Below, in pieces: positions 12,991 through 47,167 of a stretch of 64,000 bases of DNA; position 1 is the stretch's first letter; the number at the start of each line of letters is the position of its first letter. Source of the stretch: Halorarum halobium (GTDB lineage Archaea > Halobacteriota > Halobacteria > Halobacteriales > Haloferacaceae). The DNA is taken from the NCBI RefSeq assembly GCF_032116555.1, contig NZ_CP134949.1, positions 1,178,001-1,242,000 of the forward strand, written 5' to 3'. The translations under genes were made by a program, and so were the position numbers. The notes beneath the pieces were generated by a model, which saw only the letters and a list, made by a program, of their open reading frames with translations, was not told where the DNA came from and did not search any database.

Positions 12991-13599
12991 ATGTATGAGG
13001 TTTCGACGCTGGGATCCAGCATCGAACCCGGATCGAACGTCCTCTTCACCGGCCCGCCGCTGAGCGGCAAGCGCGAACTGGCCCTCGACGTGCTCGCGGA
13101 AGGGACCGAACGGGGGGAGGGCGCGATCATGGTGACGACGAAGGACAGCGCGGACAGGCTCCTGAAACGGTTCGGCAAGCGCGTGAGCCACGACGGGAAG
13201 CCGGTCGCGGTCGTCGACACGGTGACCCGCCAGCAGGGCGTCGGGGACGTCCGGGACGACGACCGCATCAAGTACACGTCCTCGCCGGTCGACCTCACCG
13301 GGGTCGGCATCAAGCTCTCCGAGTTCCTCGAGAACTTCCACGCGGAGCGTGGCATCGAGCGGAACCGGGTGATGCTCCACTCGCTCTCGACGCTTCTGAT
13401 GTACACCGACCTCCAGACCGTGTTTCGGTTCCTCCACGTGTTCACCGGCCGCATCCAGAGCGTCGACGGCCTCGGCGTCTACTGCATCGACTCGACGGCC
13501 CACGAGGAACGGGAGATGAACACGCTGAAACAGCTGTTCGACGGCATCGTCGAGACGTCCGAGGACGCCGAGCCCGCGGTGCGGATCGCGGACGCCTGA
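12991..13599 (+). CDS. RAD55/KaiC-like RecA-fold protein
   Basis: Degenerate Walker A GPPLSGKR, SSPVDLTGVGI, HSLSTLLMY, FRFLHVFT, LFDG. Confidence 0.85.
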   Translation: MYEVSTLGSSIEPGSNVLFTGPPLSGKRELALDVLAEGTERGEGAIMVTTKDSADRLLKRFGKRVSHDGKPVAVVDTVTRQQGVGDVRDDDRIKYTSSPVDLTGVGIKLSEFLENFHAERGIERNRVMLHSLSTLLMYTDLQTVFRFLHVFTGRIQSVDGLGVYCIDSTAHEEREMNTLKQLFDGIVETSEDAEPAVRIADA

Positions 13600-43323: not shown

Positions 43324-43857
43324 TCAGTTCTCGTTCCGCTTTACCACGTCGCCGAGCGTCATCGATCCGGACGACTCCGAGGACCACTCGGACTCGTCGG
43401 TGTCCTCGCCCTCCACGAGCGAGATGTCGAGCGCCTTCTCCAGTTTCCGCTGGACGTCGTCGCTCGGCAGGATCTCGCCGCGCTCGAGCTTCCGGATGAC
43501 GCTGGCCTTCTCGTTCAGTTCCTTCGCGAGCTCCTCCTGGCTCAGGCCGGCCTGCTCGCGCGCGGTTCGAAGTCGGTCGTCGTAGTCGGTCGCCACCGTG
43601 TCCATCTCGTCGAACATGTCGCGCCGGCGGCGCGTCGACGACGAGGACGAACTCGAGGAGGACGAGGAGGAGGACGAAGACGACCCGCCCGAGGAGGACG
43701 ACGTCGAGTACTTCGTCGAGGCGGACGACCCGCCGGCGTCCTGCGTGACCGCCGTCCCGAAGTCCGAACAGTCGTCACAGAGCTCCAACTCGGCACCTTC
43801 GACCTTCGTGGTGGTGAGCGAGGGCTTCTCGGCGCCACACATCTCACACTGGGGCAT
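43324..43857 (-). CDS. mbf1: Archaeal multiprotein bridging factor aMBF1
   Basis: Zn ribbon CEMCG...CDDC, poly-Ser linker, HTH LSQEELAKELNEKASVIRKLERG, TLGDVV. Confidence 0.92.
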   Translation of the reverse strand: MPQCEMCGAEKPSLTTTKVEGAELELCDDCSDFGTAVTQDAGGSSASTKYSTSSSSGGSSSSSSSSSSSSSSSSTRRRRDMFDEMDTVATDYDDRLRTAREQAGLSQEELAKELNEKASVIRKLERGEILPSDDVQRKLEKALDISLVEGEDTDESEWSSESSGSMTLGDVVKRNEN

Positions 43858-44002: not shown

Positions 44003-44036
44003 CTATCAGAATGTTTCAGATAGATTCAGTATAAAA
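44003..44036 (+). promoter_or_regulatory. Palindromic operator plus TATA box of the small-peptide gene
   Basis: CTATC-A-GAA-TGT-TTC-A-GATAG (44003-44023, 16/21 self-complementary) followed by TATAAAA (44030-44036) about 21-27 nt before ATG 44057. Confidence 0.65.
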
Positions 44037-44056
44037 CAAACCGTTTCGAGACCCGT

Positions 44057-44191
44057 ATGCCCGAAAACACTGCGATGGCGGCGTTCCTGGCGGAGCACCC
44101 GAAGCTGATCGGCGCACTGTTCACGATGACGCTGTTGCTGTCACAGGCCGGTGCGGTCGCGGCGAACGGAAGCTCTACTGCTGGTCCGTAA
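44057..44191 (+). CDS. 44-aa signal-peptide-like precursor (DUF7503-like), absent from ORF track
   Basis: MPENTAMAAFLAEHPKLIGALFTMTLLLSQAGAVAANGSSTAGP*; TATA at leaderless spacing; stop overlaps the 3' end of the convergent large ORF. Confidence 0.8.
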   Translation: MPENTAMAAFLAEHPKLIGALFTMTLLLSQAGAVAANGSSTAGP

Positions 44192-46367
44192 GTTCGGCCA
44201 GCCGTCGGCCCGTTACCTCGTCGCTCCACCGTATCTCGGTCGCGACTTCGATGGGAGACCTGGCCATGGTGAAGGCCCCGTCGAGCTCCGGGACGGGAAT
44301 CGGGACCGGTTCCCCCCGTCCGGAGCCGATGAACCGTTCCTCGTCGTCCCCGAAGTGGCCCATCGACATCGTTCCCAGATCGAACGACGACGTCGGATAG
44401 CACCGTGGCGTGGCCAGCACCCGGTCGCCGTCCGGGTCGTCCTCCAGTTCGATCAGCATCGCCGCCCCCGTCGCACACTGGCACAGCTGGACCCGCGGGT
44501 CCCCGACGATCGTGTACGCGCTCCCCGCGAACGGGCCCCGACCGACGACGTCCAGGGCCGCGTCCAGCGGGAACCCCACGTCGAGCAGCCGTGCCAGGTC
44601 GCGGCCGACGCGCGTGGCCAGCGAGTTCGGGAGCTCGGTCAGCGACACGACGCCGCCGAGCGCGCCCGCCTCGACGAGCGCCATCCCCTGTCGGTAGGAC
44701 GTACAGGCGTTCAACAGGAACGCGTCGACGCCGGTTTCCTCGAGCGCTTCGAGGTCGAGGAAGCCGTCGGGACACTTCACGCCGCGCTCGTCGACGTGGC
44801 CGACGTAGTGGAAGAAGTCGTGGTCCTCGGCCAGCAGGTCGGCCAGCTCCCCGACCGTGAGCTCGCTGTCCTGTCGAACGTCGAACGCGACGTGATCCCG
44901 GAAGCCGTACACCTCGTCGGCCTCCTCCGCCATCCGGTCGTCGTTGCAAACGACGGTGACGTCGATGGTCAGGTCCGCAGAGAGCGTCCGGTCGAGCCGG
45001 CTGCGGTACGATTCGACCGTCGGTTTCGACGCGCGCATCGGGTAGCCCGGACCGACCCACGCGAGCGACGTGCTGTCGGCGGGGCGCGGCGAGACGACGG
45101 CGTTCCCCTCGTCGGTGACGTTCTGTGTCGGCCCCCTGAGCCAGGGGCGCGACTCCGACCTGTCGCCGGCGCTCCGTGTGAACGCCGGCTCCTCGTCGCT
45201 GCGGACGAACTCGTCGAGCGGACCGCTCCCGTTCCCGCCGGGGACCGTCGGCGCCGGCGGCGGTGAGCGGATCGTCGAGAGGTCCGACGCGAGGAACGGG
45301 AGGATCGCGGCGTTCTCCGCGACCGGCTTCACGTCCGTCGTCTGGGGCCAGTCGATCGCCCCCTCGGTCGCCGACGTCGGCACGTCCAGATACGCGGCGG
45401 TTCGGTCCGCGAGGCTCGCGTCGTACCACGTCCGCCACGGCGGGTCCAGGCTCTCCGAGAGCGCCCGGTGGACCTGCAGGTCCACGTCGTAAAGCCCCGC
45501 CTCGCAGGCTCTCGTGGCACAGTCGAGCGTGAAACAGTGCCGAAGGATCGCGCCGAGTTCATGCGCCAGCCCCTCGCGGTCGGCCGGAAGCCGTCGGGTC
45601 GTCCCGCCCGCGGAGAGATACGGGTCGTCGCTCTCGACGATGCTCGCGGCGAGATAGTAGGCGACCGGTGCCGCCGAGAACAGCGGGCCGTACTCGAAGG
45701 GAACGCCGAGCGTCACCCCCGTCCCAGCGCGTTCCACCAGCGACGGGACGTCGAGCGAATCGCCGGTCTCGATCAGCGGCGGGTGGCCACGGAGCGTGGG
45801 GAACGACCGTTCCGGCGAGGTCGTCGCCAGCGCCGAACCGAAGGTGGACAGCGCCGCGGCGACGTCCGCGGGCTCCTCGGTCACGGTGATCGTTCCGGCC
45901 GGGGTCTCGTGGCGCGAGCGCGCGCCGATCCGGACCGCGGCGGGACCGTCGTCGAGGGAGACGGTCGGATAGCGGCCGTCGTAGTCGACGGACGCGGGGC
46001 CCTCGATCGAGAGGTACGCCTTCACGGGTGCGGTCGACAGTTCGAGGACGTGCTTTCCGGCCGGAACGGCGACGGAGCCGTTCGCCGTCAGCGTCTCGAC
46101 CAGCGAGTTGTCCGGGGTCCGGACGTACACGTCCGCCGTACACAGCGGCGTGACGTGCCGTGTCTTCGCCTCCCAGCAGCCGTCGACGGGCGTCGGGAAC
46201 GCGTTCCCGGCATCGACGCGGACCGGACGGTCGTCGTCCCCGTCGAGCCTGAACGGCAGTTTGACCTCCTCGATCCTGTCCGTGATCTCGTATCCGGCCG
46301 CACCGTCGGCCGGGACGATCGAGAGGGCGTCCGTCGGTTCGTCCGCTGTCTCGTTCACGCGACTCAC
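44175..46367 (-). CDS. Large cytoplasmic protein with C-terminal CHAT/caspase-like (clan CD) protease domain
   Basis: DFFHYVGHVD...AFLLNAC...GGVVSL...LARLLDVGFPLDAAL...YTIVGDP. GTG start at 46367 overlaps the upstream TGA (GTGA). Confidence 0.75.
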   Translation of the reverse strand: MSRVNETADEPTDALSIVPADGAAGYEITDRIEEVKLPFRLDGDDDRPVRVDAGNAFPTPVDGCWEAKTRHVTPLCTADVYVRTPDNSLVETLTANGSVAVPAGKHVLELSTAPVKAYLSIEGPASVDYDGRYPTVSLDDGPAAVRIGARSRHETPAGTITVTEEPADVAAALSTFGSALATTSPERSFPTLRGHPPLIETGDSLDVPSLVERAGTGVTLGVPFEYGPLFSAAPVAYYLAASIVESDDPYLSAGGTTRRLPADREGLAHELGAILRHCFTLDCATRACEAGLYDVDLQVHRALSESLDPPWRTWYDASLADRTAAYLDVPTSATEGAIDWPQTTDVKPVAENAAILPFLASDLSTIRSPPPAPTVPGGNGSGPLDEFVRSDEEPAFTRSAGDRSESRPWLRGPTQNVTDEGNAVVSPRPADSTSLAWVGPGYPMRASKPTVESYRSRLDRTLSADLTIDVTVVCNDDRMAEEADEVYGFRDHVAFDVRQDSELTVGELADLLAEDHDFFHYVGHVDERGVKCPDGFLDLEALEETGVDAFLLNACTSYRQGMALVEAGALGGVVSLTELPNSLATRVGRDLARLLDVGFPLDAALDVVGRGPFAGSAYTIVGDPRVQLCQCATGAAMLIELEDDPDGDRVLATPRCYPTSSFDLGTMSMGHFGDDEERFIGSGRGEPVPIPVPELDGAFTMARSPIEVATEIRWSDEVTGRRLAELTDQQ

Positions 46368-47167
46368 CCGAGCGGATGCCAGCCGGTCGATCCCCACCCG
46401 TCGATGTGCCAGCGCTCGTCGGGGACGACCGCGCGGTCCCGGAGCCTGAGCTCCACGACGACGTCCAGCCGGTCGGCGAGCTGGGTCACGACGGCGTCGA
46501 CGACCGGGTCCGAGCGGACGTCACCCTCACCGTCGGCTGCCGACCGTCGGGGCAGGTGGAACTGCGCCATGCCGTCCCGCTTCCCGACCGCGGACGTGAC
46601 GTCCCGCAGCAGCGCGCCCGCCGCCGCCTCGCCCAGCGCCGCACGGATGCCGTCGACGCGGAACAGGCAGACGCGAAGCCGCATCCCGTCGTCCCGACCG
46701 CGTTCCTCGCTCCCGTTTTCGCCGACCGCGTCGCCGTCCTCCGCGTCGGCCACGGTCGCGATCGCGTCCAGAAACCGCGAGCGAAACGTTCCGTCACCGT
46801 CAGGCGGGACTCCCCGGTCGCCGGCCGGGGACCCGGAGGCGGCGGCCGGGTCGCGGAGGGGGTCGTCCATCCGGACGACCGCAGCGCCGTCCTCGGCCGC
46901 GGTGACCCCGCCGGGGAACCACGCGTCCGGGCGCGGCGCGTCGTGGGTCAGCCCGAGCACCCGCCGGCGCGGGTACGACGGGTCGCCGAAGTACCGCGCG
47001 GCCGCCACCCGATGTGCGTCGGTCGGCACGTCGCCCGTGACCAGCAGGCGACAGCCGTCATCGAGCGCGTCGAGCGCCTCCCCCAGCGAGGGGTCGGCTC
47101 CCGTCGTCCGGCTCCCGGACCCACCGAGCGATTCGACGGGCCCGGCGTCGGCCCGTTGTCCGTTCAT
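46364..47167 (-). CDS. Degenerate RecA/KaiC-fold protein (DUF7504-like)
   Basis: GCRLLVTG (no intact Walker A), LRVCLFRVD, GMAQFHLP, LDVVVELR, ERWH...STGWHPL. Confidence 0.65.
   Translation of the reverse strand: MNGQRADAGPVESLGGSGSRTTGADPSLGEALDALDDGCRLLVTGDVPTDAHRVAAARYFGDPSYPRRRVLGLTHDAPRPDAWFPGGVTAAEDGAAVVRMDDPLRDPAAASGSPAGDRGVPPDGDGTFRSRFLDAIATVADAEDGDAVGENGSEERGRDDGMRLRVCLFRVDGIRAALGEAAAGALLRDVTSAVGKRDGMAQFHLPRRSAADGEGDVRSDPVVDAVVTQLADRLDVVVELRLRDRAVVPDERWHIDGWGSTGWHPLG

Follow-up and report, generated by a model that had tools for sequence, protein, structure and literature searches.

A conserved haloarchaeal gene pair encoding a Gly-Pro-ending micro-peptide and a clan CD protease, a candidate peptide-signalling module

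The window analyzed here is a stretch of 64,000 nt from Halorarum halobium contig NZ_CP134949.1, and the piece described in detail spans positions 44003 to 47167 (window numbering throughout). It holds three open reading frames (ORFs): a 44-residue DUF7503 micro-peptide precursor, a large protein with a cysteine protease fold encoded tail-to-tail with it, and a DUF7504 protein upstream of the protease (Table 1). All three lie where the original prediction, made from the sequence alone, had placed them, and both junctions it described are present, namely a 17-nt convergent overlap of the peptide and protease ORFs and a GTGA overlap coupling the protease start with the end of the DUF7504 ORF. 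The flanking genes encode aMBF1 (mbf1) on one side and a CDP-alcohol phosphatidyltransferase on the other. The unit had been described as inserted between these two genes; its location was correct, but close relatives share the flanks (mbf1 in loci L033-L035 and L147-L149, the transferase in L033-L035, L147 and L148), so the site is stable in this clade and does not reflect a recent insertion. Three full-length protease paralogs occur in this genome, each with a convergent peptide partner. The peptide-protease pair is real, conserved and widespread, and structural modelling together with allele co-variation supports the peptide as a ligand of the protease.

Table 1 Features of the detailed piece, with the evidence on which each assignment is based.
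Feature	Position	Strand	Basis or remark
AT-rich promoter region of the peptide gene, probably leaderless	44003..44056	+	Orthologous upstream regions
DUF7503 micro-peptide precursor, 44 aa	44057..44191	+	PF24335, E 2.5e-20; leader with hydrophobic helix, AxA, variable Gly-Pro tail
Predicted mature 9-mer ANGSSTAGP (8-mer also possible)	44162..44188	+	Family register, Haloplanus repeats, modelled interface
CHAT/separase-like clan CD cysteine protease, 730 aa, predicted cytoplasmic receptor	44175..46367	-	Fold model
Hypervariable beta domain at the C terminus (residues 631-730), predicted to set peptide specificity	44175..44477	-	Modelled contacts, allele tracking
Cys555, predicted catalytic, NACxS motif	44703..44705	-	127/127 homologs
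His524, predicted catalytic, Y[IV]GH motif	44796..44798	-	127/127 homologs
Arg389 of [DE]FxR in the disordered linker	45201..45203	-	Conserved Arg; candidate self-cleavage or pseudo-substrate site (speculative)
ERS[FY]PTLR motif, residues 186-193, near-invariant	45789..45812	-	Predicted to help form the pocket that takes the Gly-Pro end
DUF7504 protein, 267 aa, degenerate KaiC/RAD55 (RecA-fold), no Walker A	46364..47167	-	PF24336, E 2.5e-26

Across a sample of 151 Halobacteria genomes, this one included, the protease was detected in 133 (88%) and the peptide profile in 122, and comparison of the two lists by eye placed the peptide in none of the 18 protease-negative genomes. We distinguish clade A, the window-type loci, from clade T, a second protease clade linked to tbsP (30 loci, L116-L145). 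The clade-A set consisted of 110 loci (L003-L112; best matches, some duplicated), four of which were open at the protease 3' end, leaving 106 testable loci of which 101 carried a convergent peptide gene. Two of the five misses (L102 and L106) had the peptide cut by the locus edge and one (L083) was frameshifted; L063 had its peptide on the same strand ~630 bp away, and L094 had none. Among 69 further loci, which partly overlap the first set, 68 had the convergent peptide gene. Stop-to-stop distance was 0 or -4 in 51 of 95 distinct coding sequences (CDS). Co-occurrence across Halobacteria genomes supports the proposed linkage of small ORF and protease. The fixed three-gene unit of the original prediction was not recovered: DUF7504 precedes the protease gene in the same orientation in 69 of 110 clade-A loci (30 of the 110 having only 1.5-kb flanks) and in 0 of 30 clade-T loci, making the core a unit of two genes. 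Variations on this layout include a second protease copy 2.5 kb downstream (L041:8683-10083) and two tandem peptide-gene matches behind one protease (G015:C1:486528-486796). In Haloferax and Haloplanus (L070:6362-8218, L005, L051, L107), the gene immediately preceding the peptide gene, in the same orientation, encodes a HalX receiver resembling HVO_1271.

In clade T, to which one of this genome's paralogs belongs (C1:1595984-1600999), tbsP and the peptide gene stand head-to-head at 27 of the 30 loci, and a convergent ORF ending in Gly-Pro was found in 25 of 30. The module sits between glyA and tbsP, with a YcaO gene downstream of tbsP. Outside Halobacteria but within the same phylum, 26 of 121 genomes gave a match. 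All four genomes of family f22 retain every residue of the predicted pocket described below, ERS[FY]PTLR included, and encode a convergent peptide ending Gly-Pro, with another gene in between in one of them. The predicted tail in these loci (L215-L218) is shorter and ends FRGP, and the genomes have 40-44% GC. Nine homologs from family f26 keep the catalytic dyad in eight cases and have lost the pocket, with ERS[FY]PTLR lost or degenerate in all nine; no peptide-profile match was found near them, two of the loci having less than 600 bp of flank. Pocket and peptide are therefore kept or lost together in f22 and f26, which provides a natural control for the pocket model. The f26 homologs (L219-L227) may be gated by another ligand; their neighbors are what we take, from sequence, to be dnaG-like and acetyltransferase-like genes.

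The protease is 730 aa long when counted from the GTG of the GTGA overlap, whereas database records begin at residue 4 (727 aa). It matched no family in Pfam or NCBIfam, and NCBIfam returned none for any of the three proteins; the Pfam CHAT family (PF12770) likewise gave no match to the window protein and matched 18 of 60 homologs at E <=1, the best at 7.6e-5. An AlphaFold2 model built on a 60-sequence alignment (predicted local distance difference test, pLDDT, 88; predicted template modelling score, pTM, 0.89) comprises a beta-sandwich (~15-155), an alpha/beta domain (~160-365), a disordered linker (376-411, pLDDT <50), the protease domain (~340-630) and a C-terminal beta domain (631-730). 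The top Foldseek matches were SAVED-CHAT (E 4e-6) and separase, followed by gingipain, DdvA and Csx29, and VIA gave Z 13-18 across these five, with alignments over about residues 340-630 for gingipain R (Z 17.9, root-mean-square deviation (rmsd) 3.2, 241 aligned), SAVED-CHAT (Z 14.8, rmsd 2.8, 166 aligned) and separase (Z 13.8, rmsd 3.6, 217 aligned). His524 and Cys555 are invariant among the aligned homologs. By fold and dyad the large protein is a clan CD protease of predicted activity, which bears out the caspase-like fold proposed from sequence; the His-Cys domain is not C-terminal, as had been thought, because ~100 residues of beta domain follow it. Modelled alone, the N-terminal half reached a pLDDT of 95, and Foldseek found no credible match for it; its best VIA hit, for residues ~15-155, was to a mutarotase-like sandwich (Z 8.2, rmsd 3.8, 131 aligned), in a comparison that scarcely covered the middle domain, and we do not propose a new fold. 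A PDB sequence search with the protease profile gave a single uninformative match at E 0.8, the Atlas search returned nothing beyond the protease family itself, and the profile search recovered 913 clusters at 50% identity. The most hydrophobic 15-mer in the first 40 residues has a mean Kyte-Doolittle value of 0.85, and we predict a cytoplasmic location.

The company of defense proteases among the closest folds (SAVED-CHAT, Csx29), along with up to eight protease matches in some genomes, raises the possibility of an antiviral abortive-infection module in which the peptide would serve as guard or decoy, a role the original prediction had also entertained. We regard this as very improbable. PADLOC returned 0 families at E <=0.1 for all three proteins, a protease scan of viral contigs (nine candidate stretches) revealed no relative, and the gene is present in 88% of the sampled Halobacteria genomes at housekeeping sites.

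The DUF7504 protein scored 93.7 bits against a gathering cut-off of 27. Its predicted structure superimposes on KaiC/RAD55 (PF06745) models, themselves predictions, with template modelling (TM) scores of 0.57-0.63, and weak hidden Markov model (HMM) matches to KaiC chains were obtained at E 0.06. The Walker A motif [GA]x4GK[ST] occurs in 1 of 46 aligned homologs and is missing from the consensus, in agreement with the earlier description of a RecA-fold partner lacking it. A loop Arg is invariant and is followed by Ser in 33 of 46. We considered an ExxR cleavage consensus in DUF7504 and rejected it, since no acidic P4 residue accompanies the invariant Arg. TbsP, conserved throughout, carries an invariant [ED]xAR-G (28/28), and the linker [DE]FxR has its Arg in 87 of 96 sequences from clade A and 30 of 31 from clade T. 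By analogy with the cleavage consensus of separase, these three Arg sites may hint at Arg-directed cleavage, a speculative suggestion. DUF7504 is best viewed as an optional partner and a candidate substrate or adaptor. It adjoins one of the three paralogs in this genome, which encodes 10 DUF7504 copies. A second copy within the window (13030-13554, + strand; genome C1:1191030-1191554) has no adjoining protease, and at L057, L065, L066, L068 and L090 DUF7504 lies beyond the peptide gene, head-to-head, in the position that tbsP occupies in clade T. The neighboring aMBF1 gene encodes a long poly-Ser linker (window 43598-43740).

Pfam HMMs placed the 44-aa ORF in DUF7503 at 72.2 bits against a gathering cut-off of 27, so the resemblance of small ORF and partner to DUF7503 and DUF7504, suggested in the original prediction, is borne out above the cut-offs. 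The precursor's hydrophobic 15-mer starts at residue 17 (mean Kyte-Doolittle 1.71). Gly-Pro terminates 92 of 95 distinct peptide CDS, and for each residue all four codons occur, indicating that the constraint acts on the protein. Of 88 tails, 68 have Ala at position -10, which sets the AxA site just before a 9-mer, here ANGSSTAGP. The 8-mer NGSSTAGP proposed from the sequence was thus correctly located within the tail, while the family register prefers one residue more, the 8-mer being still possible. Tails are hypervariable 9-mers in which Ser, Thr and Cys are abundant, and the tail evolves faster than the leader (identity 0.65 vs 0.91 in 72 pairs with protease identity of 75-90%). Four Haloplanus loci (L005, L051, L058, L107) encode precursors with 2-13 copies of a 13-mer whose 9-residue core aligns with normal tails; copies vary synonymously, which argues that the 9-mer is the unit under selection. 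These polyproteins (L005:3564-4130(-), L051:6085-6381(-), L107:6079-6399(-), L058:3744-3881(-)), with near-identical 13-mers and spacers ending xxAD, resemble fungal pheromone precursors. The residue preceding the 9-mer (P1) is Ala, Asp or Arg, by lineage. The hydrophobic leader, the AxA site and importer genes, of which this genome has 11 above cut-off in the SBP_bac_5 family, are indirect indications that the peptide may be exported, matured and re-imported.

Upstream regions of orthologous peptide genes are 70-88% AT from -75 to -26, with a peak resembling the TFB recognition element (BRE) and TATA box at -40 to -26. A general TbsP box in these promoters was rejected: 22 of 95 scored at least 10/12 compared with a shuffle mean of 12.1 (maximum 22), and its positional peak comes mostly from one genus.

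Expression evidence is available for the Haloferax volcanii ortholog. HVO_1270 is reported as leaderless, translated by Ribo-seq (translation efficiency 22), detected by mass spectrometry and seen on a blot through a C-terminal FLAG tag (PMC10117724), which answers for this ortholog the prediction that the small ORF is translated. TbsP binds at its promoter, the third-ranked of nine chromatin immunoprecipitation peaks, and HVO_1270 shows a log fold change of 1.72 in the tbsP deletion, a value footnoted in the table (PMC11023807 Table 3 for the peak). The protease record of strain DS2 (P0410) has 418 aa, equivalent to residues 292-709 of full-length strain records (681-709 aa), residues 1-291 being missing, and HVO_1269 is absent from the qarA RNA-seq table. 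We infer that the receptor is broken in the DS2 laboratory strain while the peptide is still made. Two neighbors of HVO_1270 are of note: HVO_1268 is labelled arCOG02452, and HVO_1271, the HalX receiver, is lower in conditioned medium (PMC12240190).

We modelled the complex of the protease with peptide residues 15-44, using one alignment for each. The interface score ipSAE was 0.90 (runs 0.90, 0.90 and 0.89) compared with 0.01 for the best of three controls; the mark applied to this score was passed by 116 of the 157 solved pairs and by 2 of the 215 mismatched ones, and is a rough one since our own alignments were used here. The modelled partner has a pLDDT of 51-56 and the runs share at least 60% of contacts. 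On the peptide side the interface consists of residues 35-44 only. The pocket is formed by protease residues 58-60, 87, 109, 116, 186, 189-192, 292-293 and 632-715, mostly in the C-terminal beta domain, with residues 189-191 contacting peptide residues 42-43. Around the Gly-Pro end the pocket is nearly invariant (P60, E186, P190 and T191 in 84 of 84, K116 in 83), and His524 and Cys555 are absent from the contact list. Searches of the PDB turned up no similar complex. The model thus supports binding of the peptide tail in a non-catalytic pocket of the protease and, with the co-variation described below, the ligand role suggested originally.

The alternative suggestion, that the peptide is a substrate, is disfavored by a modelled site that leaves out the catalytic dyad. 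In its fullest form this explanation makes the protease a maturation enzyme for a product resembling ribosomally synthesized and post-translationally modified peptides (RiPPs), possibly with the YcaO ("haloazolisin") encoded beside tbsP in clade T. Such a role would suit tails rich in Ser, Thr and Cys and Haloplanus spacers that end xTAD/G like caspase sites, and a Halogranum salarium clade-T peptide is listed as a haloazolisin precursor (PMC4603692 Table S2). The other 30 of the 31 precursor rows examined from that table are unrelated, however, and no YcaO was noticed at inspected clade-A loci, where no systematic search was made. With a P1 residue that differs by lineage and a leader resembling a signal peptide, we consider maturation improbable.

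The co-variation check outlined in the original prediction gave a clear result among close relatives and a weak one across deep distances. We paired 19 named Haloferax peptide and protease records by adjacent accessions or strain names. Where core identity was at least 97%, C-terminal domains were 93-100% identical with the same tail (14 pairs) and 60-81% with different tails (21 pairs). Two H. volcanii records with 100% identical cores have different tails and C-terminal domains of only 60% identity, while H. volcanii DS2 and H. gibbonsii share a tail with the C-terminal domain at 85% and the core at 92%. Alleles are shared between Haloferax species. The predicted 9-mers of H. volcanii are GNTGIIYGP and GNTSVIYGP. 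Gly or Ser at tail position -6 tracks Ile or Arg at the position aligned to window residue 669, a modelled contact of peptide residue 39. A broader test of 146 loci, with pairs of at least 90% core identity, gave C-terminal identities of 0.87 where the tails are the same, 0.60 where they differ at 1-2 positions and 0.44 where they differ at 3 or more (12, 39 and 48 pairs), against 0.91, 0.92 and 0.86 for an N-terminal control in the same pairs. GC content at third codon positions (GC3) of the C-terminal domain falls below that of the core in 171 of 186 loci. From these sequence comparisons, the C-terminal domain changes with the tail, clearly at short distances and weakly at deep ones.

The same complex model and co-variation would also fit a cognate inhibitor, acting as securin, the inhibitor controlling separase, or an antitoxin would. 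The protease would then be active or harmful by default and restrained by the matching allele, yielding kin discrimination or a response to failed peptide supply. Separase, an inhibitor-controlled enzyme, is among the closest folds, and quick allele turnover with low C-terminal GC3 is compatible with conflict. The modelled site is nonetheless distant from the dyad, the loci occupy stable chromosomal sites, and export would be an indirect way to deliver an inhibitor to a cytoplasmic enzyme. Moreover, 18 of 151 genomes lack the protease and the DS2 record is truncated although its peptide is made, so the pair is dispensable. We judge an inhibitor unlikely.

We consider it probable that an exported and re-imported peptide gates the cytoplasmic protease, with alleles resembling pherotypes; export, re-import, the sign of regulation and the substrate are the parts that we infer. 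The DUF7503 precursor would be expressed from its own promoter and its leader would insert in the membrane, where cleavage at AxA would free the 9-residue peptide ending Gly-Pro. The peptide would re-enter the cytoplasm, probably via an oligopeptide ABC transporter, and bind in a pocket between the N-terminal domains, which may read the constant Gly-Pro, and the C-terminal beta domain, which may read the variable middle. Binding would switch the CHAT/separase-like domain, most likely on, and the switched protease would cut a regulator, for which DUF7504 and TbsP are candidates. The tail-to-tail layout places both specificity determinants in one short DNA block, so that they could be swapped together and create strain-specific pherotypes. 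A more specific version is possible though short of probable: a widespread quorum-sensing or kin-recognition system of archaea, novel in architecture, in which the re-imported Gly-Pro nonapeptide allosterically activates a separase-like protease that cuts a dead KaiC adaptor or TbsP, which represses the peptide gene in H. volcanii and would close an auto-induction loop, with pherotypes exchanged as tail-to-tail cassettes. It may have been overlooked because the main laboratory strain has a broken receptor.

Several observations weigh against a gating peptide. The two determinants are adjacent, so linkage alone could yield co-variation. Partial correlations within genera came out positive for all 8 groups, and only two groups pass permutation at 40 or fewer of 2000 (15 and 37); in group g28 the N-terminal control correlates more strongly than the C-terminal domain. 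In a mirror-tree type test at deep distances, regional partial correlations are no higher than the leader's, and the contact-set test gave a trend only, matched by 63-82 of 1000 random sets. The best TbsP-motif match in the window's peptide promoter covers only 9/12 positions, the motif not being conserved, and HVO_1270 shows no significant change in the qarA deletion (adjusted P 0.11 and 0.46). The hydrophobic leader is missing from precursors of Haloplanus, L085 and several clade-T loci, and the validation of FLAG-tagged HVO_1270 used cell extracts (PMC10117724). On the other side, selection for matched pairs is favored by the excess divergence, by the occurrence of alleles in more than one species and by the agreement with the modelled pocket.

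The last two of these observations, the leaderless precursors of Haloplanus and part of clade T and the FLAG fusion in cell extracts, would suit a cell-autonomous sensor. Here the precursor or its tail would work inside the cell that makes it, informing the protease about the state of membrane insertion, secretion or proteolysis. Allele diversification within species and sharing across species are hard to explain without interaction between cells, and most precursors retain AxA exactly before the 9-mer. This arrangement seems to us improbable beside an exported, re-imported ligand. Among the leaderless clade-T peptides, those of L134, L137-L140, L142, L144 and L145 end R-[VI]-[ST]-x-Y-[GS]-G-P.

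No description of the module was found in the open-licence PMC and bioRxiv literature, and the peptide-protease pair appears to be unpublished, in keeping with the view of it as undescribed. Archaeal cell-cell signalling is largely uncharacterized. With this pair come a ligand of nine defined residues, a pocket predicted for it, specificity alleles that occur naturally within one species and a protease as output, all in an archaeon amenable to genetics. If the proposal is true, a peptide-switched protease with a swappable specificity domain would constitute a new receptor class and possibly an orthogonal tool. The family also contributes a branch from archaea whose fold lies near those of separase and CHAT proteases; caspase-like activity has been reported in haloarchaea by a paper that describes clear gene homologues as lacking (PMC3615174).

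Two haloarchaeal systems invite comparison. The haloazolisin thiazole/oxazole-modified microcin (TOMM; Cox et al. 2015, PMC4603692) is alike in having a haloarchaeal YcaO, found next to the clade-T locus, and in counting one clade-T peptide among its listed precursors. It differs in that the neighborhood of the window locus shows no YcaO, and the available text of that paper mentions neither the protease nor a Gly-Pro family. The disk-forming signal (DFS) of H. volcanii is secreted, at most 3 kDa, and survives autoclaving and proteinase K; its size is compatible with a small peptide, and the available text of PMC12240190 does not give its molecular identity. The DFS response, however, runs through a two-component system, QarABC (PMC13464002), and the DS2 protease record is without residues 1-291. 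An identity of our peptide with DFS has no support beyond this compatibility.

Among protein families, DUF7504 resembles inactivated KaiC/RAD55-like proteins (arCOG02452) in fold, and is unlike KaiC/RAD55 ATPases in its missing Walker A and its invariant loop Arg; no described link of these to a protease was found. The protease shares the clan CD fold, the His-Cys dyad and, by prediction, regulation by an accessory domain with CHAT proteases (SAVED-CHAT 8tl0, Craspase Csx29 7y9x, DdvA 8rot, HetF), separase (5fc2) and gingipain R (4ief). In place of SAVED or tetratricopeptide repeats (TPR), its own accessory parts are a beta-sandwich, an alpha/beta domain and a C-terminal beta domain, and its predicted ligand is a peptide encoded alongside it instead of an oligonucleotide or an RNA complex.

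There is a functional parallel with RRNPP systems (Rgg/SHP, Rap/Phr, PlcR/PapR, AimR/AimP), which have allelic specificity groups and for whose receptors TPR are a hallmark. Both have a tiny precursor gene adjoining that of a cytoplasmic partner, predicted to be so here, and a C-terminal mature peptide. The present receptor differs in that its model contains no array of helical repeats and Pfam matched neither TPR nor a helix-turn-helix; its output is a cysteine-protease domain, and its archaeal peptide ends in an invariant Gly-Pro and has no N-terminal acidic residue. By analogy, the pair would work like RRNPP signalling while not belonging to that family, its receptor being a protease and not a TPR protein.

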